A DNA stretch of 64,000 nucleotides from an uncultured Candidatus Saccharibacteria bacterium (GCA_947085855.1 CAMTYB010000001.1:405788-469787); one strand, 5' to 3'. Shown: positions 811 through 12,713, counted from the first letter of the stretch. Notes: a model not told the origin generated them from the sequence alone. A program made the numbers and translations.

Positions 811-1269
811 ATGTCTCACAACCAAGATCCACGTCAATTCGCACCGCAAGCAGACCCTAGTCTGTTGGCTGAACTACGTCAAAACGTTGTAGCATTGGCT
901 GCTACCACTGTTATCGCGCTTGCTGCAACCGCTGAAATCGCTCAAGGCGCCTCTACTAACTCACAGACTGGACGCCCATTAGCTCCAGAAATTGAAAAGC
1001 CAAAACCAGGTCAAAAGCCTGCCGATGGCCGCAATACGCTTGAATGTCGACAAGTCGAAGTAAAGATTCCTGATACACCTGCCGCAGAAAAACCACGCGA
1101 AAATGATCATCGAATTGTTAAGGGCAAAACTGTAGCTGGTGGCATCACCGGTCTTATGGTTAGCTTTGGCAAACGTACCACTGGCTCTACCAAGAGCGAA
1201 AAGTCTAAAGCAGCTTCAGCTACTCGACAAAACTGCGACAGCGACCTAGACCGTCCAAGCTTAAGATAA
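811..1269 (+). CDS. hypothetical protein (152 aa), no recognisable domain
   Basis: ORF track entry preceded by a consensus promoter and an SD. The product has an Ala-rich hydrophobic stretch followed by a Lys/Pro/Thr-rich region. Confidence 0.45.
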   Translation: MSHNQDPRQFAPQADPSLLAELRQNVVALAATTVIALAATAEIAQGASTNSQTGRPLAPEIEKPKPGQKPADGRNTLECRQVEVKIPDTPAAEKPRENDHRIVKGKTVAGGITGLMVSFGKRTTGSTKSEKSKAASATRQNCDSDLDRPSLR

Positions 1270-1283
1270 ACTCTCTATCTAGA

Positions 1284-2189
1284 TTATTTATTGAGTTCGT
1301 GGCCACCGAATTTATTGCGCATAGCCGCAAGTAGTTTGGTTGCAAAGTTGGTCTCGCCTTTTTGCGAAGCCAAGCGAACATCGAATGAAGCCTGAATTGC
1401 CGGCAATGGAATGCCGAGGTCTTTGGCAGCCTCGAGAGTCCAGCGAGCTTCGCCCGATTCGGCCACAAAGCCATCAATGCCTTCGAGGCTCGGGTTTTCG
1501 CGTAATGCATCGCGGCTTAATTCATTGAGCCACGAGACGATTACGCTACCGTGCTGCCAGACTTCACCAGCCGCAGCGAGATCAAGGTCTTTGTACGGCC
1601 CTTCGCGTAGCATGCGATAGCCTTCGGCGAGTGACTGCATCATGCCGTATTCGATGGCGTTGTGGACCATTTTGACATAGTGGCCAGAGCCGGCCGGTCC
1701 GAAGTGCTGATAGGCACCGCTCGGTGCAGCAAGCACCTGAAATACTGGTTCGAGGCCTGGGAAAGCATCTTCCCCGCCACCGATCATCATAGAAAAACCA
1801 TTCTGGTAGCCCCACACGCCACCGCTTGTACCACTGTCGAGCATGGTTGAGCCAGCGGCTTCAACCTTTTTGGCTCGTTCTTGGGTTTGGCGGAAGTCAG
1901 AATTGCCACCATCAATCAAAATACTGCCTTTTGGCACAAGCGCCAGCCATTCATCAAGCTGCTCATCGACTGTGTCAGCTGGTACCATCAACCAGACGAC
2001 TACCTGCTCGCCTTCGGCGAAGGCAGCCACAACGTCTTCTTTGGTATAGGCTGCTGTTGCTCCATAGGTAACGGCTTCGTCAACCTTGGCAGCGCTGCGG
2101 TTGTGCGCGATCACTTGGTGATCGGCTTCGCTCAATTTGCGAGCGATCTGCATACCCATGCGTCCTAATCCAGCAATTGCAATCTTCAT
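1284..2189 (-). CDS. gnd: 6-phosphogluconate dehydrogenase (decarboxylating), short ~300-aa Gnd-like form
   Basis: N-terminal Rossmann motif MKIAIAGLGRMGMQIARKL, length and overall conservation typical of the short 6PGDH family. AGGAGGG SD lies upstream of the ATG at 2189. Confidence 0.85.
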   Translation of the reverse strand: MKIAIAGLGRMGMQIARKLSEADHQVIAHNRSAAKVDEAVTYGATAAYTKEDVVAAFAEGEQVVVWLMVPADTVDEQLDEWLALVPKGSILIDGGNSDFRQTQERAKKVEAAGSTMLDSGTSGGVWGYQNGFSMMIGGGEDAFPGLEPVFQVLAAPSGAYQHFGPAGSGHYVKMVHNAIEYGMMQSLAEGYRMLREGPYKDLDLAAAGEVWQHGSVIVSWLNELSRDALRENPSLEGIDGFVAESGEARWTLEAAKDLGIPLPAIQASFDVRLASQKGETNFATKLLAAMRNKFGGHELNK

Positions 2190-2378
2190 GTGTCCCTCCT
2201 GCGTAACAAGCCACTGGCTTTGAGTACATTATTTGTGTTGCTATTCATTATACCGTTCTTTAGCCAAACCCGAGCACGAGTTTATATAAAGAGTAGGCTT
2301 CGCCGCTCACCTCTGTTACAATAGAGTTCACTGAGTATCGCCAGCTACAAGACACAACACAACCTAATACGGAAGTCG

Positions 2379-2401
2379 AGGTTGGGTTAGATGCTAAGCA
2401 T
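2379..2401 (+). repeat. block A-left: extra copy of the ychF SD/ATG/first codons
   Basis: aggttgggttagatgctaagcat versus 7558-7580 aggttgggttaaatgttaagcat, 21/23 identical by hand alignment. Confidence 0.7.
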
Positions 2402-2403
2402 TG

Positions 2404-2455
2404 GCATGAACAAGACGCAACCATACCATTCAGCATCACTTTTTTAATGCCACCA
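2404..2455 (+). repeat. block B-left: imperfect direct repeat of 7372-7423
   Basis: The core 2411-2455 versus 7379-7423 is 40/45 identical by hand. Both copies read Q[D/E]ATIPFSITF[L/S]MPP in one frame. Confidence 0.7.
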
Positions 2456-2876
2456 CTAGATAAAAGAACCAGAGGTTATACGCCTCAACAGATTAGAGAA
2501 CTGCAAGAAACTATTGATGGTAAGTGGTAAAATTGGCGTTCATATTTATCGATCAAGTGAACATGCAGCAACGTTACGAAAATTTATTCCCGAATATTCG
2601 ACACCCCACCACACTCACCACTATATTTATTGTTATTACAAAGCAGCATTAACTGACTGGTCTTCATAGCCATAGCAAAATACTTACGCTTACTTTTTTT
2701 AGAGGACTTGGCCGACCAAGAATGCGTGATAGGGTATGAGCGGTCAATATTAATAGAGGACGGCCCAATGCCAGTATGGCTGAACGGGTGGCGTATATGA
2801 GCTTGGAAGAGTCATTAATAGATACGATTAATATGCAGCAAGAAGGAATGCCAACGTCTGGTTTTTCGGAATATAC

Positions 2877-5000
2877 CTATTTACTCGGCCACCATACCCA
2901 TTTTCCTAGCAGTACAGACAACGACGGAATCAGTATAAGAGAGATTAGGAACGCGCCAAGCGCGATACCGAGCGATACGCTAAAGCCCATTTGCGTTAAC
3001 AGGCTTAAGCCAGCAAAGGCTAGAGAAGCAAATGTTCCCGCCAAAATCACACCAGCGGATATAAGTGTTGAAGCCGTATGCTCCACAGCCTGTTGTGCAG
3101 CTTGCGCAGGTGAGCTGCCTTCTAAATGCACTTCTTCGCGTAGACGGGAAATCATTAGTATGTTGTAATCCGTGCCAACCGCAACCACAAAGAGGTAGAG
3201 TAAAATTGGAAGCATAAAGATAAGGCCGGAACTATCACCTATAACAGTAAATGCATACGTTGTGGCACCTAAAGTTGCAAGGACACCAAGGGCTACCGAT
3301 AATAGTAGATATACCGGTGCAACGAGGCTTCGCAGCAAAACTGCCAAGATGATAAATATCATCACTGCAGCAAGCGGTACAATAGTGCGGATGTCTTTGT
3401 TAGTGGCATCCTTCAAGTCAGCATAAGTGGCGGTTTCGCCGCCGACTGCTATTTCGGCGTCAAGTCCAGTACTGTGAGCGGCTTGGCGGATTGGGCCAGC
3501 TACATTACTTATCGCTTTATCCGAAGTTGGGTCGTCTGCAAGCAGCAGAGAAATGACAGCCGCCTTACCATCTCTGGACTGTTGGGCGAGAACAGGCGCT
3601 GTACCACTCGGAGGTGAGGCTGTTTGTGGCGGCAGCACACTTGCTACGCCCTCCGCTTTAGTCAGGGCAGTTGCAAGCGTCGTCAAAGATTCCTGGCTAA
3701 GGGCTGCATCACTGCGTACATAGACCGTAGTGGGACTGGCAATACCCGGTGGATAAGCTGCCATCAATTCCTTAAAAGCTCGTCCCGATTCAGTGTTAGT
3801 CGGCAATTGACTCGTCAGATCAAAGGAGGCGCTATACTGTGCCAGACCTGAGGTCATCAGTGCCAGGACGGCAATGCTAGCAGCTGCCACTCGCAATGGT
3901 TGCCTTGCAATCAGCCGCCCCAATTTGCCAGCAAATCTGCCAGTAGATGCAGTCTGCCATTTCTTTGATGGCCAAAATATTTTATCGCCGATAATAGCAA
4001 GCAGTGCAGGCACAAGCGTGATAGAGGCCAGCATCATCAGCATTACAGACACTATTAGCCCTGGTGCTAGCGTACTGAAGAAACCAAGGGACGCTGCAAA
4101 CATTGCCGTGAATGCTGCGCCAACCACGAGTGCCGCAGAAAAGATCGCGGCGCCGGCTCTGGTCAGCGCAAAGCTGACTGCCCCTCTCGAGTGATCACCA
4201 CTTCTCAGACGCTCCCGGTAACGGAAAAGCAGAAACAGTATGTAGTCGGTGCCAATTCCAAAGAGAACAACTATTAGTAAAGAAGTCAGCTGTCCGCTGA
4301 CCTGAAAATCGAACGCTTGAGCCATCGCTGCCAGTATTGAAGTCGCCATCGTGTAGATAAGGCCGACAGAAACAAGCGATAACAAGGCCGCAAATGGGCT
4401 GCGGAAGATGATAGTAGGGAGTATCAGTATTAACAGTACCGTCACTAGGCCTACTATTTTTTCGGCATTACCTGACGATTCCTTGAGGTCTACGGCAATT
4501 GCCGGCTGGCCGGTCACAGCATAACTAAGTCCTGAGCCTCTAAGTTCTGAGCCCAGTTTTTGCCTCAAGGATGTCACGGCTCTTAACACGGCTTCGTCTT
4601 GTGGACCGCCCCTTATTTCCACTTGTGCCAGTTGTATCTGTTTATTTTGTGACAGCATTTGCGGGACTGAAACTACCTTCTCTACCCGTTCGATCCCGGC
4701 AGTATTCAACTGCTTCACCGCCTCTTGTATTTGCCGTTGGTCTTCTGTATTTAGCTGTTTATTATCAGACTTCTTAAAAAGAACTATTGCACTTTGACCT
4801 TCTGATTGCTGAAAAGCTTGCTTGGCGATACCTTGGGCTGTGGCTGATTCATAAGTATCTGGCAGGAAGCTCGCCTGATCGTCTGAGGTTACGCTTGATA
4901 AACTTGGGGACAGCGTCACGGTAACTATGGCGGCAATAACCCAAAAAATTACAATATACCATCTTTTTTCAGTTATAAAATCAGAAAATTTTTTTATCAT
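2877..5000 (-). CDS. MMPL family (RND superfamily) membrane transporter
   Basis: 707 aa. Architecture is N-terminal TM, large loop, TM bundle, second loop and second TM bundle. Sequence features are typical of MMPL/YdfJ-like exporters. Confidence 0.85.
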   Translation of the reverse strand: MIKKFSDFITEKRWYIVIFWVIAAIVTVTLSPSLSSVTSDDQASFLPDTYESATAQGIAKQAFQQSEGQSAIVLFKKSDNKQLNTEDQRQIQEAVKQLNTAGIERVEKVVSVPQMLSQNKQIQLAQVEIRGGPQDEAVLRAVTSLRQKLGSELRGSGLSYAVTGQPAIAVDLKESSGNAEKIVGLVTVLLILILPTIIFRSPFAALLSLVSVGLIYTMATSILAAMAQAFDFQVSGQLTSLLIVVLFGIGTDYILFLLFRYRERLRSGDHSRGAVSFALTRAGAAIFSAALVVGAAFTAMFAASLGFFSTLAPGLIVSVMLMMLASITLVPALLAIIGDKIFWPSKKWQTASTGRFAGKLGRLIARQPLRVAAASIAVLALMTSGLAQYSASFDLTSQLPTNTESGRAFKELMAAYPPGIASPTTVYVRSDAALSQESLTTLATALTKAEGVASVLPPQTASPPSGTAPVLAQQSRDGKAAVISLLLADDPTSDKAISNVAGPIRQAAHSTGLDAEIAVGGETATYADLKDATNKDIRTIVPLAAVMIFIILAVLLRSLVAPVYLLLSVALGVLATLGATTYAFTVIGDSSGLIFMLPILLYLFVVAVGTDYNILMISRLREEVHLEGSSPAQAAQQAVEHTASTLISAGVILAGTFASLAFAGLSLLTQMGFSVSLGIALGAFLISLILIPSLSVLLGKWVWWPSK

Positions 5001-5144
5001 ATCGCTTTCTCGTTAGGTGATACTACTCTTATATTTTTTGTCCAAAGTCTGTTACATATTATTGCACATCTGGACATTAAATACCTTTATCAAACGGCCT
5101 GCTTGCAGCCATACATGCAGTTTATTCGGATGAATGACATATGT

Positions 5145-6704
5145 TCAAGGCCTCACTTCATCCACCTCTTTCGACGAATTGCTGAGCGGCGTTTCGCGCA
5201 AGAACAATGCTACCGCGAAAGCCGCTAAGGCGAACGGGATGGCGTACAGGAACATATCATGGAAAGCGCTTATATAACCGCTTAATACCGCCTGCTTGTA
5301 CTCCGCCGGCAGGTTGGCTATACCACTCGTAGCGGCGTTATGGGTAATACTAGCCGCCCCCGGAAACGACTGCTCCAGATAATGAGTCAACCTGGATATG
5401 AGAATAGTACCGAAAACAGCACCGCCCAGACTACCACCTACACTTCTAAAGAATGATACGGTCGATGTGGCACTGCCGAGATCGGAGCGAGGCGTGGCGT
5501 TCTGCACAGCAAGGGTTGGTATCTGAATAAACATGCCGAGGCCCAGGCCGATTACGAGCATCCATACCGATAAGGTAACGTGGCCCGTATCGAGTCCAAG
5601 GTGGCTAAACAGCCATAATCCGATTGCGAGCAAAAGCGTTCCTATTATTGGGTAGATCTTATACTTGCCGGTTTTAGTAATCAGCCGGCCCGAAACGATG
5701 GACGCTATGAAGACCCCGATAATCAACGGAAGCATCAACAAGCCGGATTCGGTCGGTGAATTGCCTCTGACAATTTGCTGGTACTGGGGAATGTAGAGTA
5801 TGCTGGCGAACATAGCGATTCCTGAAAGCACCGACAGGAGTACTGAAACATTAAAGATATCGTTCTTAAATAGCTTTAAGGGTATGATTGGTTCGGCGGC
5901 ATAACGCTCGCGCCAGATGAACAGCGCGCCAAATGCCAAGCTGGCTGCCGCCAAACAGTAAATCTGTGGAGAGTTCCATTCATACTCGGTACCGCCCCAA
6001 ACAGACAACATAAGTACAGATACGGTCGCAAATGACAGAAGAGCTGCGCCTAGGAAATCAACCTTGTGAGGGCTACGTCGAACCGGCAGGTGCAGTACTT
6101 TGTCAATCACAACGAGCGCCAACAGGCCTAGTGGCAGGTTGAAGAAAAATATCCAATGCCAGCCAAGGTGTTCAGTAAAGAATCCTCCTAGTAACGGGCC
6201 GGCTACACTGGCTACTGCAAACACTCCGGCAAAATAACCTTGATACCTGCCTCGTTGCCGGGGAGGCACTAGGTCACCGACGATAGTTAGCACCGTAGCC
6301 ATAATTCCTCCGCCGCCTAAACCCTGTATCGCCCTGGCTCCGATTAGCTGGTTCATGTCCTGGCTTGCGCCGGCTAGCAATGAGCCTGCCAAGAACATGA
6401 TAATTGCAATGTTTAATATTTTTTTACGTCCGTACATATCGCCCAGCTTGCCGTAAATCGGCGTAGCGATAGCACTAGCTATCAGGAATGAAGTGACCAC
6501 CCAGGATAACTTGTCCAAAGCATGTAAATCTACTGCAATCTGTGGCAATGCGGTCGCTACAATTGTCTGGTTAAGGGCAGCGAGAAGCATGACCACCATC
6601 AAAGCTCCCATCACTTCCATGATTTGAGCATGGCTAGGTTGTGTACCTTCCTTAATACCTGCTGAATTCGTCTTAGATTTTTTCAACGACTTTAATAATG
6701 ACAC
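5145..6704 (-). CDS. MFS transporter, DHA2 (EmrB/QacA-like, ~14 TMS) drug:H+ antiporter family
   Basis: 519 aa. Contains the MFS motif GKLGDMYGRKK, many TM helices and DHA2-like length. GTG start at 6702-6704 with a GGGAGA SD. Confidence 0.85.
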   Translation of the reverse strand: MSLLKSLKKSKTNSAGIKEGTQPSHAQIMEVMGALMVVMLLAALNQTIVATALPQIAVDLHALDKLSWVVTSFLIASAIATPIYGKLGDMYGRKKILNIAIIMFLAGSLLAGASQDMNQLIGARAIQGLGGGGIMATVLTIVGDLVPPRQRGRYQGYFAGVFAVASVAGPLLGGFFTEHLGWHWIFFFNLPLGLLALVVIDKVLHLPVRRSPHKVDFLGAALLSFATVSVLMLSVWGGTEYEWNSPQIYCLAAASLAFGALFIWRERYAAEPIIPLKLFKNDIFNVSVLLSVLSGIAMFASILYIPQYQQIVRGNSPTESGLLMLPLIIGVFIASIVSGRLITKTGKYKIYPIIGTLLLAIGLWLFSHLGLDTGHVTLSVWMLVIGLGLGMFIQIPTLAVQNATPRSDLGSATSTVSFFRSVGGSLGGAVFGTILISRLTHYLEQSFPGAASITHNAATSGIANLPAEYKQAVLSGYISAFHDMFLYAIPFALAAFAVALFLRETPLSNSSKEVDEVRP

Positions 6705-6724
6705 TCGGCTCTCCCTTCTTGCAT

Positions 6725-7177
6725 CTACTTCTCAATGGCCTGCAGTATTTTTCTGTTCACTTCATTTGCCAGACGCAATTCATCAACTGACAGCTCACTG
6801 GTTAGTTTCTGAACCAATTGACTACGCTTTTGCTTTATTTCCGTCATCAATTTTTTTCCTTGATCTGTTAACACAAGGTTCTTTACACGTCGGTCATGAC
6901 TATCTGTGCTTCTGTCTACGTAGCCATTACACACCAAATAATCTACAAGTCTTGTTACTGCTCCATCGGTCACTCTCATTCTCTCCGCTATCTGGTGACC
7001 TGTTGCAGGTTGCATTTCTTGTGCCGCCTGCAGAGTGGCAATAAGCGTAGGCTTGAGTCCCTTAGCATCTACAAAATCGTAAAAAACCTTTTTCCATGCC
7101 CTATAAAGCTCTCTGTTTATAGTTACGTACTCTGACACCAGTTCATCCCTGTTCACAATGGTTGACATAGTAAACAT
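6725..7177 (-). CDS. MarR family transcriptional regulator
   Basis: 150 aa. The winged-HTH region ...ATGHQIAERMRVTDGAVTRLVDYLVCNGYVDRSTDSHDRRVKNLVLTDQG is typical of MarR. The gene lies directly upstream of the MFS gene. Confidence 0.85.
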   Translation of the reverse strand: MFTMSTIVNRDELVSEYVTINRELYRAWKKVFYDFVDAKGLKPTLIATLQAAQEMQPATGHQIAERMRVTDGAVTRLVDYLVCNGYVDRSTDSHDRRVKNLVLTDQGKKLMTEIKQKRSQLVQKLTSELSVDELRLANEVNRKILQAIEK

Positions 7178-7371
7178 TTTACATACTATACTTTACGTAG
7201 TCAATGATAATGCTTATATAAAAACTGCGCCCATTGATTATTCCTGTACAAATGAATAAAAATAGTTAATACAGAATTTGCCTTATTTTTCTATTTATTA
7301 TGGGAACTATTGTTAAATTTAGCCGCGATAGACCATATAGAGTAGGTGGTCGCAATTCAACATAATTATGT

Positions 7372-7423
7372 GCACTCACAAGAAGCAACCATACCATTCA
7401 GTATCACCTTTTCCATGCCACCA
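7372..7423 (+). repeat. block B-right: imperfect direct repeat of 2404-2455
   Basis: See block B-left. It lies 134 nt upstream of block A-right. Confidence 0.7.
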
Positions 7424-7557
7424 GTTCCTCACCAGTATGTCTTACGACGATAAGCTTTTTACTGTTAGGAAGATAGTTGATAAAGTAATAGCAACGAAGG
7501 AGCAAATAACAATATGCGGAAACATACCGTCATACGCCAATTCAGTGGCTATTCAAA

Positions 7558-7580
7558 AGGTTGGGTTAAATGTTAAGCAT
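7558..7580 (+). repeat. block A-right: the functional ychF SD/start, repeated at 2379-2401
   Basis: Overlaps the real ychF start codon at 7570. Confidence 0.7.
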
Positions 7581-8658
7581 AGCTATTGTTGGCCTGCCAA
7601 ATGTTGGTAAATCGACGCTGTTTAATGCGTTAACGAATAATAATATCCTGGCTGCTAATTATCCATTTGCCACGATTGAGCCAAATACTGGCATCGTGCC
7701 GATTCCCGACCCTCGGCTCGCCAAGCTCGCCGAATTATATGGCTCCAAAAAAGTTGTCCCCGCAACAGTTACCTTTGTAGATGTTGCTGGATTGGTTAAA
7801 GGCGCGAGCCAGGGCGAAGGTTTGGGCAATCAGTTCTTGAGCCACATCCGTAACTGCAATGCGATCTGCCAGGTAGTCCGGGCCTTTCATGACGAAAACG
7901 TCTTGCACGTCGACAACCAAGCTAACCCAACCAGCGATATTGACGTTATAAATACCGAGCTCGTACTGGCTGATTTGCAGACGGTCGAAAAACGTCTGCC
8001 GCGTGTAGCCAAAGAAGCACGAGCTAATCCAAAGCTTCGACCGGAAGCTGATTTCCTGGAAAAAGTAAAAACTGTGCTCGACAACGGCACCCCGTTGTCG
8101 TCTGATCCGGAGATTATGGATGATGAATTAACTCCTTGGTTGAAGCAAGAACTGCAATTGCTGACGCTTAAGCCGATCATGTATTTGTTCAATGTTGATG
8201 ACGATACCTTGGCTGATAGTTCACGTCAGGCTGAGCTTGCAAAGTTGGTGGCCCCGGCTCAAGCTCTCTTCGTTAGTGCCAAGCTCGAAAGCGAGCTGCG
8301 CGAGCTTTCGCCGGCCGACGCCACCGAGCTCCTCGAAAGCTACGGCGTCCACGAATCCGGCCTCAACCAAGTCATCCACGCCGCCTACAACATTCTCGGC
8401 CTACAAAGTTACCTGACTGCTGGTGAACAGGAAGTCCGTGCCTGGACCATCACCAAAGGCGCGACTGCCCCACAAGCCGCTGGCGTCATCCACACCGACT
8501 TCGAACGCGGCTTCATTGCCGCCACCGTCGTGTCATATCAAGATTTGGTTGAAGCTGGATCGGAAAGCGCTGCTAAAGCCAAGGGCGCCATTCGCACCGA
8601 AGGCAAAGACTACATCATGCAACCGGATGATGTAGTTGAATTCAAGTTTAACGTCTAA
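7570..8658 (+). CDS. ychF: redox-regulated/ribosome-binding ATPase YchF
   Basis: MLSIAIVGLPNVGKSTLFNALT P-loop, Obg-family G motifs and the conserved C-terminal TGS-like end ...DDVVEFKFNV. Confidence 0.95.
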   Translation: MLSIAIVGLPNVGKSTLFNALTNNNILAANYPFATIEPNTGIVPIPDPRLAKLAELYGSKKVVPATVTFVDVAGLVKGASQGEGLGNQFLSHIRNCNAICQVVRAFHDENVLHVDNQANPTSDIDVINTELVLADLQTVEKRLPRVAKEARANPKLRPEADFLEKVKTVLDNGTPLSSDPEIMDDELTPWLKQELQLLTLKPIMYLFNVDDDTLADSSRQAELAKLVAPAQALFVSAKLESELRELSPADATELLESYGVHESGLNQVIHAAYNILGLQSYLTAGEQEVRAWTITKGATAPQAAGVIHTDFERGFIAATVVSYQDLVEAGSESAAKAKGAIRTEGKDYIMQPDDVVEFKFNV

Positions 8659-9651: not shown

Positions 9652-10446
9652 ATGAGCTCGATAGCTACGAGTCCGCGACGTCTTGGCCTCCTGCCCTTCT
9701 GGACGGTGCTGCGTCGTGAATTGTCACGCTTTTGGGGTATAAAGCGACAAACTATTATCGGACCTGTCCTGGAGACGTATCTGTACATCAGCGTCTTTGG
9801 CGCATCGCTCGGCAGCCGCATCAGCGAACTGGATGGCTTCCGCTATATTATTTTCATTATACCTGGCCTACTAATGATGAGCTTCTCTATCAATATTTTC
9901 AGCAATAACGCCTCGTCAATCATGCAGCAAAAGCTGCAGCACTCGATTGACGACCAACTGGCTTCTCCGGTTACTAACACGCAGCTTCTGGCAGCGTTTG
10001 GCTTGGGCGGCTTTATACGATCAATGATCATTACGAGCATCACATTCTTGACCGCCTGGATACTGATACCCGATCTTCCAATGGAACACCCGTTCCTATT
10101 CATACTGAGCTTCTGTCTAATTGGCTTGTTCTTCGCCATGGCCGGTGTTTTGGTTGGCCTAAGATCTGAAAAGTTTGACGACCTCAGCTTGTACCAAACG
10201 TTCATACTACAGCCGTTAATCTTCTTGGGCGGAGTCTTTTACTCTGCTTCTTTGCTGCCGCCTGTGTTCGAAGCAATTACCCGATTCAACCCAATCTACT
10301 ACATGATTAATACGGTTCGCTACTCGATGCTTGGTTCAGCTGACGTCAATGTCGCGATCAGCTTGAGTGTAATCGGTGTTTTTGCCTTTGGCCTATTCGG
10401 TGTCAATTACGTCCTATTCAAGCGCGGCTACAAACTACGTAATTAA
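9652..10446 (+). CDS. ABC-2 type transporter permease
   Basis: The track ORF 9493..10446 was trimmed to the ATG at 9652 (MSSIATSPRR...), 8 nt after the ATPase stop. The product has six predicted TM helices, typical of ABC-2 permeases. Confidence 0.8.
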   Translation: MSSIATSPRRLGLLPFWTVLRRELSRFWGIKRQTIIGPVLETYLYISVFGASLGSRISELDGFRYIIFIIPGLLMMSFSINIFSNNASSIMQQKLQHSIDDQLASPVTNTQLLAAFGLGGFIRSMIITSITFLTAWILIPDLPMEHPFLFILSFCLIGLFFAMAGVLVGLRSEKFDDLSLYQTFILQPLIFLGGVFYSASLLPPVFEAITRFNPIYYMINTVRYSMLGSADVNVAISLSVIGVFAFGLFGVNYVLFKRGYKLRN

Positions 10447-10470
10447 TCTTCGAACCATACTTCGGCACAT

Positions 10471-10499
10471 TTAAAAAGGCACACTGTATGTGCCTTTTT
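10471..10499. terminator. bidirectional intrinsic terminator, hairpin unit 3
   Basis: ttaaaaaGGCACActgtaTGTGCCttttt, with an A-run upstream and T5 downstream. It lies between convergent genes. Confidence 0.75.
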
Positions 10500-10530
10500 A
10501 AGAAGTCGTAGGAAGTTATATTAGGACTCG

Positions 10531-10553
10531 TGGCACACTGCGTGTGCTCTTTT
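10531..10553 (+). repeat. hairpin unit 4 of the GCACAC-N3-GTGTGC family
   Basis: tgGCACACtgcGTGTGCtctttt. Positions 10532-10549 versus 8708-8725 are 17/18 identical. Confidence 0.7.
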
Positions 10554-10589
10554 GAATGTGCGCCTAACTAACCCCGACCCACTACTAGA

Positions 10590-11591
10590 CTATGGTTGCA
10601 GGGTTTCGTAGACGGCTTTTGATACATCAGCCATCTGACTCCATGATGCATCGTTGTTGGTCATGATGACTACTACGTATTGGTGCTGGCCAATAGTGAC
10701 AACTGCAGCATCGTGGCGTAGGCTCTTGTTTTCGTGAGCAATGTTGGCAACTAGGCAATCGGTTTGCTGTTCGCAGACTTTTGGGAGACCTTCGCGCTGG
10801 GTATGAGCATAGAGGCCATCAAAAACGATACGTCGAGCTTTGTCGCTGATCAGCTGACCCTTTTGAATTTGATACAGGAACTCGCCAACATCACGTGGTG
10901 TAGTTGCTTGCTTCTTGGCATCTTCAATTGTGGTCTTCTTGAAGCTATGACTTTCGAGTACTGAGTCAGCTTCTTTGATGTTAGCGTAGCCATTGAGCGA
11001 GCTATTGCAGCTCGGATCTTTGCCATTAATTAACGCTTCTAGACACTGAGCAATGGTTTGCTTACCAGCTCTGGAATTCCAGTTAGCTGATGGTGTTTTG
11101 GCTTCCAGCGGCAAAGTCAGGAATAAGTTCGCTAAGCTGCCAGCCTCAAAGCTCGTGTCGGCGTTTACACTGGCCATGCGATCAGACTTAACATCGCGGA
11201 TGTAAACTGACCACTTTTGCCCACCAGGCACGTTCTTGAGCTTGTTCTTAACTTGCTTGGCAAGTTGCTCATCTTCACGGGCTTTGGTGGTGGCATCTTT
11301 GAGCTTGTTGCTTGCCTCGTCAGATTCTTCTTGAGTATCGATAGGTCCGGTTTGTCGCTGCGAAGCTAGAGGTTTGTTTTGCTGATGTTTAGCATAAAGA
11401 TCGGCTAACTTCATGCCGCCCACCCCAATACCAGCAATAACTACCACCATGCTCATCATGCTGGCTGCCATTTGCAGTTTATTAGCTGCTCGTCGCTCCA
11501 ACACACCATGACCGTGGTTGAAATAATATACTTTTTTGCCGCGCCCCGTTAATAACCGAAACGGCATAAAACCTTTACCTTTAATTTTCAT
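10590..11591 (-). CDS. membrane-anchored protein with a class-A beta-lactamase-like (serine hydrolase) domain, tentative
   Basis: One TM helix (MMSMVVVIAGIGVGG). Then WSVYIRDVKSDRMASVNADTSFEAGSLANLF resembles the beta-lactamase2 N-terminal motif, but with S-L-A-N in place of S-x-x-K. ...NKSLRHDAAVV resembles the KTG region. Confidence 0.4.
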   Translation of the reverse strand: MKIKGKGFMPFRLLTGRGKKVYYFNHGHGVLERRAANKLQMAASMMSMVVVIAGIGVGGMKLADLYAKHQQNKPLASQRQTGPIDTQEESDEASNKLKDATTKAREDEQLAKQVKNKLKNVPGGQKWSVYIRDVKSDRMASVNADTSFEAGSLANLFLTLPLEAKTPSANWNSRAGKQTIAQCLEALINGKDPSCNSSLNGYANIKEADSVLESHSFKKTTIEDAKKQATTPRDVGEFLYQIQKGQLISDKARRIVFDGLYAHTQREGLPKVCEQQTDCLVANIAHENKSLRHDAAVVTIGQHQYVVVIMTNNDASWSQMADVSKAVYETLQP

Positions 11592-11978
11592 TTTTGTCTC
11601 TTTTTGTTAGCTTTTTAGCTTTGGTTTTAACACGCCTGCATAGGGCGTGCATTGTTTATGAAAATTGTTTTATTTTTTGAGTTTTGGTTTTTGCGTTTGT
11701 TTCAGTATTGGATTTGGCATTTAATTTTGCTTTTTATTTCTCCAAGTACTAAGTCCAACATACCATACCCTTTTTGCCGCCTGCAAGTCTTTTTTGCTCA
11801 CGCTTTATAGGCCGGCACGGCACAACCAAATAGTATCCAGTTCCACCAAACGTATACAAATTTTATTACTACCCCTACCCCTGTTATTAAGATAGTGTGG
11901 CCTGCGCTTTAGCGCCACGACTCATTTGTGTGTCCGTAAGTTTTCCACAGTACACAAAAATTTAGTCAGGGCGTCTGC

Positions 11979-12713
11979 CTACAAAACATGCAACACGTAA
12001 AATCGTTCTTTGTTGCCCTTTTGCCCGCTGACTTGGCTATCGGCTTTGTCGATAATTTTAAAATATTGCTTAGTCCATGACTCAAAATCCTTAAGGATGT
12101 CTCGCCGTAGTTTTTCGTTTTTAATTACACCTTTGTGCTTAACGGCACTATTGCTGGCTTCAAACTGCGGCTTAACCATAGCAATGATCTGCGCCCCAGC
12201 TGGCACCAACTGAGCTATATGCGGCAATACGTCTCGCAAAGATATAAACGACACATCAATGACTACATAATCAACCGGTCGACTCAGTTCTTTTATGTCT
12301 CGAATGTCAGTCTGCTCATGCAATTCAATCTGCGGATGATGTCGCAACGTTGGATGCAGTTGATTAGAACCAACGTCCACCGCTATGACATAGTCCGCAC
12401 CTTTCTGAAGCGCATAATCAGTAAAGCCACCAGTACTACTGCCGACATCCAGCACTACCTTACCCCGAAAATCGAGCTTAAATAGCGCGCTCACTGATGC
12501 CAGTTTGAGCCCAGCTCGGGACACATATTGTTCAGTTGCTGTCAGCTTAATCGAGTCACTGCCTGTTACCATGTGTCCAGGTTTGGTAATAACTTTATTG
12601 TTAACCTTGACTGAGCCAAGTCGAATAAAACTTTCAGCTTGACTACGAGTTGGCACGAGGCCTTGGGCTACAACAGCTTGATCGAGTCGAAGCTTGTTAC
12701 TTTTTTCGCTCAC
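11979..12713 (-). CDS. tlyA: TlyA family rRNA 2'-O-methyltransferase (S4 domain + FtsJ-like)
   Basis: N-terminal S4-like RLDQAVVAQGLVPTRSQAESFIRLGSVKVN followed by the SAM motif VLDVGSSTGGFTDYAL. Confidence 0.85.
   Translation of the reverse strand: MSEKSNKLRLDQAVVAQGLVPTRSQAESFIRLGSVKVNNKVITKPGHMVTGSDSIKLTATEQYVSRAGLKLASVSALFKLDFRGKVVLDVGSSTGGFTDYALQKGADYVIAVDVGSNQLHPTLRHHPQIELHEQTDIRDIKELSRPVDYVVIDVSFISLRDVLPHIAQLVPAGAQIIAMVKPQFEASNSAVKHKGVIKNEKLRRDILKDFESWTKQYFKIIDKADSQVSGQKGNKERFYVLHVL

Follow-up and report, generated by a model that had tools for sequence, protein, structure and literature searches.

The 5.2-kb block that separates a gnd-like gene from ychF in this Saccharibacteria DNA (a 64-kb stretch, here called the window) is probably what remains, after decay, of DNA that a large serine recombinase (LSR) integrated site-specifically at the first codons of ychF. 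Its three genes, which encode a MarR-family regulator, an MFS permease and an MMPL transporter, would be the cargo of this decayed LSR island, because the block is bounded by repeats and carries an LSR relic, a short reading frame at its left end (the tail) marks such elements elsewhere, and the corresponding site is empty in the closest relative (Table 1). An earlier note on this DNA had described the module as bracketed by permuted direct repeats, and our analysis supports the reading of the block as an insertion between such repeats. The permuted order of the repeats, which the note had ascribed to a generic duplication or recombination junction, is instead explained by two specific joints: A-B on the left is an attL-type joint, and the LSR relic followed by A on the right is an attR-type joint.

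Table 1. Features of the gnd-ychF region, in window coordinates.
Feature	Position	Strand	Evidence or remark
gnd-like 6-phosphogluconate dehydrogenase gene, left chromosomal flank	1284..2189	-	Pfam NAD_binding_2 + 6PGD
Putative ancestral ychF promoter motif ctctgttacaat, TG-extended -10	2311..2322	+	motif level only
A0, probably the oldest ychF start, leaderless and now dead (CTGAGTATCGCC)	2331..2342	+	inferred from alignment
36-nt spacer ("leader")	2343..2378	+	always between two A copies in other genomes
A-left, attL core: dead second-generation ychF SD + ATG + MLSI	2379..2401	+	21/23 vs A-right
Tail ORF, 43 codons + stop, HWHEQDATIPFSITFLMPPLDKRTRGYTPQQIRELQETIDGKW*; left end of unit 1	2399..2530	+	LSR reading frame
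Non-coding DNA, tail stop to MMPL stop	2531..2876	.	
MMPL-family RND transporter gene, cargo	2877..5000	-	Pfam MMPL, E = 7e-115
DHA2 (EmrB/QacA-type) MFS efflux permease gene, cargo	5145..6704	-	Pfam MFS_1
MarR-family regulator gene, cargo; first gene in the minus-strand unit	6725..7177	-	Pfam MarR, E = 1e-11
marR upstream region; may also hold unit 1 right end and ychF promoter	7178..7362	.	
B-right, a second tail copy truncated after ~17 codons (SQEATIPFSITFSMPP) at 7423	7363..7423	+	
3′ relic of LSR gene	7422..7610	+	tblastn with L005 LSR, E = 5e-20
A-right, attR core with live ychF SD and ATG (7570)	7558..7580	+	pairs with A-left only
ychF, redox-regulated ATPase, target gene	7570..8658	+	NCBIfam TIGR00092, 450 bits

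The repeats are real and non-random, as the earlier note had claimed. The copies of block A (2379–2401 and 7558–7580) agree at 21 of 23 positions, and those of block B (2395–2455 and 7363–7423) at 49/61 without gaps, with 41/46 in a 46-nt core. Each block occurs exactly twice in the 64-kb window at ≤3 mismatches, where 100 shuffles lead one to expect 0. Local BLAST between the two non-coding stretches of the block recovered B at E = 7e-12 and A at E = 4e-4, and nothing significant beyond them. The blocks are contiguous as A-B on the left and stand as B-134 nt-A on the right, the permuted order reported before. The left ATG (2391) leads into a dead-end frame of 18 codons, also as reported, and the right ATG (7570) opens the 362-aa YchF. 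A is thus the stretch of identity around the crossover, with A-left belonging to attL and A-right to attR.

The DNA from B-right to A-right is the 3′ end of an LSR gene. The 134 nt between these repeats, together with A, correspond to the last ~54 codons of the recombinase, which read …QFLTSMSYDDKLFTVRKIVDKVIATKEQITICGNIPSYANSVAIQKVGLNVKHS and then continue out of frame into ychF as far as a stop at 7608–7610. Window DNA at 7413–7598 is 76–78% identical to LSR 3′ ends located upstream of ychF in three other loci (L005, L048 and L073), and the relic is 100% identical over 162 nt to positions 913–1074 of L088, in which it extends farther upstream (…EAFSEPFTQFLTSM…). The succession of LSR 3′ end, A and ychF seen at A-right recurs in L073 and L094. 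The window retains only these last ~54 codons of the LSR; the Resolvase and Recombinase Pfam domains are found in the intact genes of L005, L073 and L004. The earlier statement that no integrase or transposase is present therefore holds only for intact mobility genes in cis and is otherwise wrong, given the LSR relic. Because no intact LSR remains in cis, the island should be unable to move any more without a recombinase acting in trans. The block contains no transposase ORF, none of 25 weak inverted-repeat pairs lies at its ends, and its bounding repeats, at 23 and 61 nt, are not of the short target-site duplication type left by transposons.

The same LSR family is found at ychF in many genomes. 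An intact LSR gene abuts ychF in at least seven other Saccharibacteria genomes, and eight loci carry it at full length (L005, L048, L073, L004, L025, L010, L061 and L094). A search for recombinase homologues returned 749 at E ≤ 1e-30, and the ychF P-loop region, read in an alternate frame, forms the C-terminus of 88–98 of the top 120 database LSR homologues. Ahead of the gene for the L005 protein (567 aa, Resolvase + Recombinase) lie genes for an HTH_17 Xis-like protein and a Toprim primase; the best NCBIfam match of the L005 protein is CcrB, with a score of 97 bits where the cut-off is 900. No LSR of this family was present at the 13 ychF loci fetched from outside the Saccharibacteria (mostly Actinomycetota), IMG/VR viral contigs yielded nothing when searched with the B core and the L005 LSR, and no description of the system was found in the literature on Saccharibacteria or CPR. 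The attL ends of intact elements were not found within 10 kb upstream in five loci (L005, L004, L061, L073 and L094), so that these elements must be longer than the flank available; with attL >10 kb upstream, no fetched locus holds an intact element with both its ends. Contiguous LSR-A-tail joints do occur (P0182, P0230, P0121 and P0135). No circular or excised form was recovered, and a check for circular contigs found no terminal overlap in L086, L088, L089 or L091–L093, the last three of which carry both LSR and tail.

Block B proved to be the start of a conserved 43-codon tail, which is situated beyond the attachment site and in frame with the LSR. B-left (2395/2404–2455) constitutes the first part of the tail ORF, and the frame Q[D/E]ATIPFSITF[L/S]MPP, to which the earlier note drew attention, is found in both B copies. 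Its suggestion that B derives from coding sequence is borne out by intact copies: the tail is under purifying selection, with dN/dS of about 0.2 (0.16–0.20 against L086 and L089b), and control frames lack such a bias. Tail homologues occupy attL-type joints in L016 (three copies), L086, L087, L035, L063, L089, L090 and L003. The tail is also contiguous with the LSR C-terminus in P0121, P0123, P0127 and P0135, and contiguous and in frame in the full-length LSRs P0182 and P0230. We also considered whether B might be a piece of the LSR, and rejected this, since the conserved frame of B differs from that of the LSR relic at B-right and intact LSRs lack B-like sequence at that position. To judge from sequence identity, B-right and B-left appear to represent different tail sub-lineages: B-right agrees with an independent metagenome copy (L086) at 45/46 positions and with B-left at only 41/46, which argues that B was acquired twice rather than duplicated in place.

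A survey of relatives for an unoccupied gnd-ychF site, proposed in the earlier note, found one in the closest relative, L002, in which the two genes are 88 nt apart. This evidence comes from a single genome, whose gnd, ychF and downstream ABC genes encode proteins 82% identical to those of the window; the gnd-like gene itself (NCBIfam TIGR00872, 309 bits, over the cut-off) has as its 82% identical counterpart the L002 gene directly beside ychF. Window 2306–2336 aligns without gaps to L002 6197–6227. The promoter motif lies 7–9 nt before ychF ATGs or attL-type relics in L002, L016 (four copies), L035, L084 (two), L087 and L090, and A-left adjoins the ancestral ychF promoter. A0 (CTG AGT ATC GCC, for ATG AGT ... 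ATC GCA in L002) is separated from the -10 element by 8 nt, the same spacing as for the live L002 ATG, and thus probably marks the oldest start. The 36-nt spacer that follows it also stands between A1 and A2 in L005, L048, L013, L088 and most database LSR C-termini, in which it reads ...HSDTRDTTQ...QVGLDAKYW, and L088 1067–1140 is 96% identical to window 2334–2407. YchF begins MLSI... in the window and in the LSR-adjacent L005 and L094, MSLSI... in L002 and L089, and MSSLSI... in L035.

Elsewhere, the tail marks the left end of such elements, and in several genomes successive tails are lined up ahead of ychF, each pair enclosing a different gene. Tail-bounded tandem units were seen directly in four loci (L003, L016, L089 and L090), and the window has two tails. 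The accompanying cargo comprises toxin-antitoxin, ankyrin and unknown genes, with no MarR gene nearby. At each junction in L016 the tail is preceded by a further copy of the ychF promoter, ATG and about seven codons, and L089 contains a similarly emptied unit, consisting of a tail, about 300 nt, an LSR relic, A and another tail.

Based on these joints, we propose the following history. In the excised circle the LSR ORF would run across attP (…KVGLNVKH-W-HEQDATIPF…*); this placement of attP inside the ORF is suggested by the tandem-type joints and by selection on the tail. Integration would exchange the recombinase C-terminus for out-of-frame ychF sequence, and the right end of the element would furnish ychF with a new ribosome-binding site and start, MLSI… replacing MSLSI…. 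The resulting attR joint is much like attB and could therefore receive further elements, so that units would pile up beside ychF. Unit 1 in the window would comprise tail 1 and the MarR-MFS-MMPL genes, and would be followed by unit 2. B-right and the LSR relic most likely represent this second unit after an internal deletion at 7423/7424, of which 17 tail codons and 54 LSR codons would survive: tail similarity stops at 7423, identity to the L088 relic begins at 7422, and the two share a 2-nt "CA" microhomology at which the deletion may have occurred. A recognisable copy of A would have been lost from the joint between units 1 and 2. Local alignment scores for a decayed LSR or A copy to the left of B-right fell within the shuffle distribution, and an ungapped comparison with A by hand, unscored by any tool and in a register set by B, gave 12/24; the two-unit history therefore calls for a further, unseen deletion or for a right end that has diverged. 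In this history, ychF is cut off from its ancestral promoter (2311–2322), and its transcription has to start within 7178–7569.

The three minus-strand genes named in the earlier note (MMPL, MFS and MarR) were confirmed, as were the long flanking non-coding stretches, which measure 687 and 392 nt. The MFS permease scores 270.5 bits against NCBIfam TIGR00711 (cut-off 230.2). The closest homologues of the MMPL protein that were checked (66–71% identity) lie in Saccharibacteria contexts with other neighbours, and those with a named source (47–54%) all come from Saccharibacteria among the 120 matches listed; an origin of the module in Actinomycetota hosts is thus not supported. On another contig, an MMPL-MarR pair with 70% identity is separated by ~8.5 kb from a Resolvase/Recombinase/Zn_ribbon gene. 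Stretch 2531–2876 had no Rfam match, no terminator-like site and no tblastx or blastn match to the fetched loci, and tblastx of 2531–2876, 5001–5144 and 7178–7362 against all fetched loci returned nothing. Promoter-like sites in the 7178–7362 region (minus strand 7204–7176, plus strand 7162–7189) were no more frequent than by chance, and when the two non-coding stretches were scanned for promoter and terminator consensus sequences, the counts were no higher than in shuffles. Region 7178–7362 is not significantly similar to either the LSR relic or A; a tattgttaaattt motif within it, at ~7309–7320, resembles the ychF promoter motif by eye. The absence of Rfam matches at E ≤ 1 in 2000–8000 indicates that no known leader or riboswitch is present, and since no tRNA or tmRNA was found in the whole window, this is not a tRNA-targeting island.

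How many units the window holds bears on the history proposed above. A single integration, with B later duplicated in place so that B-left and B-right are sisters, would account for the single LSR relic, the two clear copies of A and the lack of a significant A or LSR remnant to the left of B-right; the duplication might have happened, for example, while the MarR-MFS-MMPL genes were captured into the tail region. We regard this as unlikely, because B-right is closer to L086 than to B-left, because the sequence on its 5′ side (TATGTGCAC) is like that at the L016 joints, unlike that of B-left (TTGGCATGAAC), and because tandem tail-bounded units have been seen directly. Moreover, no insertion mechanism is known to result in a 60-nt target duplication.

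Generic recombination, segmental duplication or homologous import, without a dedicated site-specific recombinase, could produce permuted direct repeats, and would suit a block that has no intact recombinase and a GC content close to that of its flanks; it is nevertheless very improbable, given that an LSR relic sits exactly between B-right and A-right, that the same family is found at the same ychF nucleotide position in many genomes, and that several of these share the A/tail architecture with unrelated cargo. There is equally little to recommend an ancestral block that was lost in L002, with A and B as leftovers of an old local duplication. MMPL and/or MFS genes do occur within a few kb of ychF in L034, L055 and L084, but in L084 the MMPL-MarR pair is not part of the array: it is found on the far side of the native ychF promoter, in another gene order and at 66% identity. 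Furthermore, in the window the native promoter lies to the left of the block together with two dead ychF starts, as insertion at a gene start would lead one to expect, and a precise deletion restoring the 8-nt promoter-ATG spacing in L002 would be unlikely. Both B copies are ~200 nt upstream of minus-strand starts (gnd and marR), as might suit repeats with a cis-regulatory role, for instance as MarR operators or as a leader RNA of ychF, maintained in duplicate. We give this hardly any credence, since no Rfam family matches, B evolves as coding sequence in one frame, and elsewhere it accompanies toxin-antitoxin, ankyrin and unknown cargo with no MarR gene nearby.

Integration by an LSR provides a concrete mechanism for an odd repeat pattern and indicates the route by which a reduced CPR genome acquired an efflux module. 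It also points to a widespread system in which serine recombinases of Saccharibacteria repeatedly target the first ychF codons and build arrays of cargo genes. A bolder reading, possible though on balance doubtful, is that the ychF start in Saccharibacteria acts as a dedicated cassette-capture platform, served by one LSR family with its ORF across attP, on which units are stacked. If so, small units carrying toxin-antitoxin pairs, transporters or unknown genes would each rebuild the ychF start, some bringing a copy of its promoter, and the conserved 40-residue tail, present only with an intact attP, would switch the activity or direction of the recombinase. Such a platform would be a serine-recombinase analogue of the integron in ultra-small, host-dependent bacteria thought to be poor in mobile elements. 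Prophages have been described in oral TM7, and none in the three environmental TM7 genomes examined (PMC7739484). The loci studied here were obtained from metagenomes of soil, groundwater and reactors, and the system would therefore be a main route of gene gain in environmental members. LSRs with a defined, highly conserved attB are sought as genome-integration tools, and a recombinase C-terminus that depends on the state of integration offers a testable model for directionality control.

The ychF gene or its upstream edge is also an integration site for LSR-encoding pipolins of Actinomycetota and for the pneumococcal prophage PPH005, and in pneumococcus a defective prophage with int beside ychF is reported to control ychF expression; the passages of these reports that were consulted describe neither cassette arrays nor a tail (PMC11551731, PMC8637289). 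No piPolB was seen at the locus studied here. In integrons, and in CIME/ICE accretion in streptococci, recombinase-less units are presumably moved in trans and, as here, one docking site gathers many short units, each with a recombination-site repeat. In contrast to integrons, the recombinase associated with the ychF units is serine-type rather than an IntI tyrosine recombinase, and the boundary repeat is a protein-coding tail with a copy of the target gene start rather than an attC hairpin. In myxophage Mx8 (int/intX) and SSV1-type elements, the integrase gene reportedly spans attP, so that integration alters or splits its C-terminus as we propose for the LSR, but these are tyrosine recombinases at tRNA genes, and the part exchanged here would be a conserved 40-residue tail. 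The staphylococcal SCC elements (SCCmec, ACME and pseudo-SCC) use the large serine recombinases CcrAB or CcrC to integrate at the end of rlmH/orfX. In both systems integration by an LSR at one end of a conserved housekeeping gene leaves that gene intact, serial accretion creates tandem units split by direct repeats, some of them without a recombinase, and the cargo includes resistance or transport genes. They differ in that the target here is the 5′ start of ychF rather than the 3′ end of rlmH, the recombinase scores far below the Ccr family cut-off (97 versus 900 bits), and the host is an ultra-small CPR bacterium. The ychF system resembles SCC-type accretion, with an attachment site that would lie inside the recombinase ORF.

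The block of ~5.2 kb between the two copies of repeat A is probably the decayed product of an integration at ychF by a large serine recombinase (LSR). Window positions 7413-7598 share 76-78% DNA identity with the sequence directly 5′ of ychF in three comparison loci (L005, L048 and L073), with weaker similarity in L004, L030, L061 and L025. An identity of 76-78% is far above expectation for intergenic DNA; the YchF proteins of those genomes are ~70% identical. In L005 the matching stretch forms the 3′ end of an LSR gene, whose 567-aa product has a Resolvase and a Recombinase domain; an HTH_17 (Xis-like) gene and a Toprim primase gene precede it. Full-length LSR homologues directly adjoin or overlap the start of ychF in L005, L048, L073, L004, L025, L010, L061 and L094. 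Translation of the window in the LSR frame gives …QFLTSMSYDDKLFTVRKIVDKVIATKEQITICGNIPSYANSVAIQKVGLNVKHS and continues into ychF out of frame; A supplies the codons VGLNVKH of the LSR frame and the SD, ATG and MLSI of ychF in another. With the L005 LSR as query, 749 database proteins were retrieved at E ≤ 1e-30, and 88-98 of the best 120 homologues terminate in an alternate-frame translation of the ychF P-loop region (…CWxAECWQV…) and therefore had integrated at ychF. The earlier note was right about an insertion, an empty site and the coding nature of B, but overlooked this relic, which explains everything: the 134 nt between B-right and A-right are the end of the recombinase gene.

The intact LSR element at ychF in L094, a longer one, carries a reverse transcriptase gene (RVT_1) adjoining a bAvd-like gene (467-1756). 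This gene pair is the signature of diversity-generating retroelements and suggests that the L094 element is phage-like. In the window, a 20-codon ORF, MRKHTVIRQFSGYSKGWVKC followed by a stop (7514-7576, plus strand), overlaps the LSR relic in a different frame, has a strong AAGGAG site upstream at 7497-7502 and an equivalent in L005, and ends in a stop codon that overlaps the ATG of ychF (ATGTTAA). It could serve translational coupling to ychF or result simply from the conserved LSR codons.

Anatomy of the gnd-ychF region in window coordinates
Feature	Position	Strand	Remark
gnd-like dehydrogenase	1284-2189	minus	
Putative native promoter	2311-2322		left side of the block
A0	2331-2342		apparent dead first-generation ychF start
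36-nt spacer	2343-2378		elsewhere always between two A copies
A-left	2379-2401		dead second-generation start
Tail 1	2399-2530		includes B-left
346-nt stretch			between tail 1 and MMPL
MMPL	2877-5000	minus	
DHA2-type MFS	5145-6704	minus	
MarR	6725-7177	minus	
185-nt stretch			between MarR and B-right
B-right	7363-7423		
LSR relic	7422-7610		
A-right	7558-7580		carries the live start
ychF	7570-8658	plus	

The repeats and the gene set of the earlier note withstood scrutiny of identity, uniqueness in the window and gene assignments. The A copies are identical at 21 of 23 positions, and B-left (2395-2455) aligns with B-right without gaps at 49 of 61 positions, including a 46-nt core with 41 identities. 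Each is a unique pair within the 64-kb window, shuffled sequence gave zero matches, and a BLAST comparison of the two non-coding stretches returned only A (E = 4e-4) and B (E = 7e-12). No tRNA gene was found in the window, and no Rfam family match (E ≤ 1) in 2000-8000. Between the gnd-like gene and the minus-strand gene upstream of it lies an ORF of 152 aa (811-1269, plus strand) that includes a hydrophobic segment, has no Pfam match and is conserved only in L001, which is the same contig.

The homologues of its ychF assign the window to Saccharibacteria (TM7). The empty site is supplied by L002, which of the genomes in the species-level collection is closest to the window: its gnd, its ychF and the ABC gene downstream each share 82% protein identity with their window counterparts, and the divergent gnd and ychF genes are separated by 88 nt. 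Eight nucleotides upstream of the ychF ATG, this intergenic region contains the motif ctctgttacaat, which recurs at the left side of the block. There, CTGAGTATCGCC follows it at an equal distance of 8 nt and resembles the L002 ychF start (ATGAGT…ATCGCA) in a dead form. Because the same motif is found directly 5′ of ychF, or of a truncated start of this gene, in L016, L035, L084, L087 and L090, we read it, at the level of the motif, as the native, near-leaderless ychF promoter.

B-like sequence was located in L016 and two metagenome contigs, and in every case it opens a frame of ~40 codons, the tail, in the LSR frame. L086 begins with A directly joined to B, as on the left side of the window. 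In L087 and L016 the ychF promoter motif, ATG and 7-10 ychF codons precede B. The tail reads HWHEQDATIPFSITFLMPPLDKRTRGYTPQQIRELQETIDGKW in the window, …FSMPPLDKRTRGYTPKFIKELQETAGGNW in L086 and …ATIPFSITFDMPELDKQTRGYLPEYIQELQITIGGEG in L087, each followed by a stop, and more distant variants also exist (…TQLPFELKLxMPxTDRGxRGYS… and …NQPFEIxFxLPEPDDKRTRGYS…). A dN/dS of 0.16-0.20 between intact copies, with no excess of synonymous change in the other two frames, bears out that B is coding sequence. At attL-type joints the tail lacks a start codon of its own; elsewhere it is fused in frame to C-terminal relics of LSRs (P0121, P0123, P0127, P0135 and P0122) and also to the full-length recombinases P0182 (567 aa) and P0230 (611 aa). 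On the simplest reading, the LSR ORF of the un-integrated element would span attP and end in the tail, and integration would split this ORF, leaving the tail at attL and a truncated LSR at attR. No circular contig was recovered. That the attP-spanning ORF acts as a functional switch is a tentative idea, which we consider rather unlikely.

We lean slightly toward a block composed of two units, namely tail 1 with MarR-MFS-MMPL (unit 1) and a tail fragment with the LSR relic (unit 2), the second internally deleted. Tail similarity stops at 7423 and identity to L088, a contig from another sample, begins at 7422, with the dinucleotide CA shared, so that the B-right/LSR joint is a deletion junction; a similar emptied unit is present in L089. 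B-right matches the L086 tail at 45 of 46 positions versus 41 of 46 for B-left, which places the two B copies in different lineages of the tail. L088 contains the same LSR relic (100% identity over 162 nt), reaching further upstream (…NIDLEAFSEPFTQFLTSM…) and joined via A to the same spacer and a second A copy (96% identity to window 2334-2407), after which a different tail variant follows, a combination showing that modules are exchanged at A. The weak point of the two-unit model is the joint between the units: counted by hand in register, only 12 of the 24 nt left of B-right agree with A, and no alignment of this region was better than those of shuffles. This joint reflects either a second deletion or a unit 1 with a divergent right end. 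The arrangement of A, a 36/42-nt spacer and A is seen in window 2331-2401, L005 9926-10012 and L088 1049-1140, with either promoter or LSR on its left and either ychF or tail on its right; it may be a scar left by an older integration, or the site may have been duplicated in tandem.

A tblastn survey with four tail variants as queries revealed three tails in series upstream of ychF in L003, L016 and L090, two in L089, and one each in L035, L026, L063 and L084. In L016, the promoter motif, ATG and ~7 ychF codons precede the tail at all three junctions, each pair of tails encloses a small gene of its own, different from the others, and the live ychF carries a fourth copy of promoter and start. 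The cargo consists of PIN/MazE and YafQ toxin-antitoxin pairs in L089 and L090 and of an ankyrin-repeat gene in L084. Serial tails with differing cargo identify the ychF start as a docking site for accumulating units, each of which gives ychF a fresh start and sometimes a promoter too. Repeated docking is mechanistically plausible because the attR joint would be nearly identical to attB. L084 (8560-10010, minus strand, and 10001-12600) displays the putative native promoter, ATG, a decayed tail, the ankyrin-repeat cassette, a new promoter and ychF. The L016 contig, with its three-cassette tail array, is titled Candidatus Limnocylindrales and has a Saccharibacteria-type ychF (71% identity); it is probably mis-binned.

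All source-named homologues of the MMPL protein among the 120 listed (47-54% identity) are annotated as Saccharibacteria, and the closest with fetched context, P0002 (71%) and P0008 (66%), lie in Saccharibacteria genome contexts. These two and P0003 (70%; gene table only) show the order MMPL-MarR without an MFS gene, and a Resolvase/Recombinase/Zn-ribbon gene lies at a distance of ~8.5 kb from P0003. In L084, an MMPL-MarR pair (66% identity) is found near ychF, just outside the array and beyond the putative native promoter. The homologues, together with a GC content of the block close to that of its flanks, argue that the efflux module moved within the phylum; these sequences gave no evidence for transfer from an Actinomycetota host. 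MMPL genes are also near ychF in L034 and L055. In L082, the Saccharibacteria genome with the closest MMPL homologue, SMODS and S_4TM genes (CBASS-type defence) adjoin a REP_ORF2-G2P replication-protein gene (594-2358).

The block itself is a dead remnant and a new instance of LSR island accretion; its parent family, in which the LSR ORF appears to contain attP and units form cassette-like arrays at the start of ychF in CPR bacteria, merits a dedicated survey. Attachment sites inside the integrase ORF are a feature of tyrosine integrases of the Mx8 and SSV1 types. PMC11551731 and PMC8637289 give ychF as a reported target of LSR-bearing pipolins of Actinomycetota and describe, in pneumococcus, prophage integration beside ychF and a defective prophage reported to control ychF expression. 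A study of TM7 found prophages in oral TM7 and none in the three environmental genomes examined (PMC7739484). A full-text literature search found no description of a ychF LSR/tail system in Saccharibacteria or CPR. Because the best NCBIfam match of the L005 LSR, CcrB, scores 97 bits against a cut-off of 900 and the integration target is another one, this LSR is not a member of the staphylococcal SCC group. SCC is nevertheless the best functional parallel: in SCC, integration by an LSR occurs at the end of a conserved gene, which is kept intact, and tandem composite islands, parted by site repeats, include units without a recombinase.
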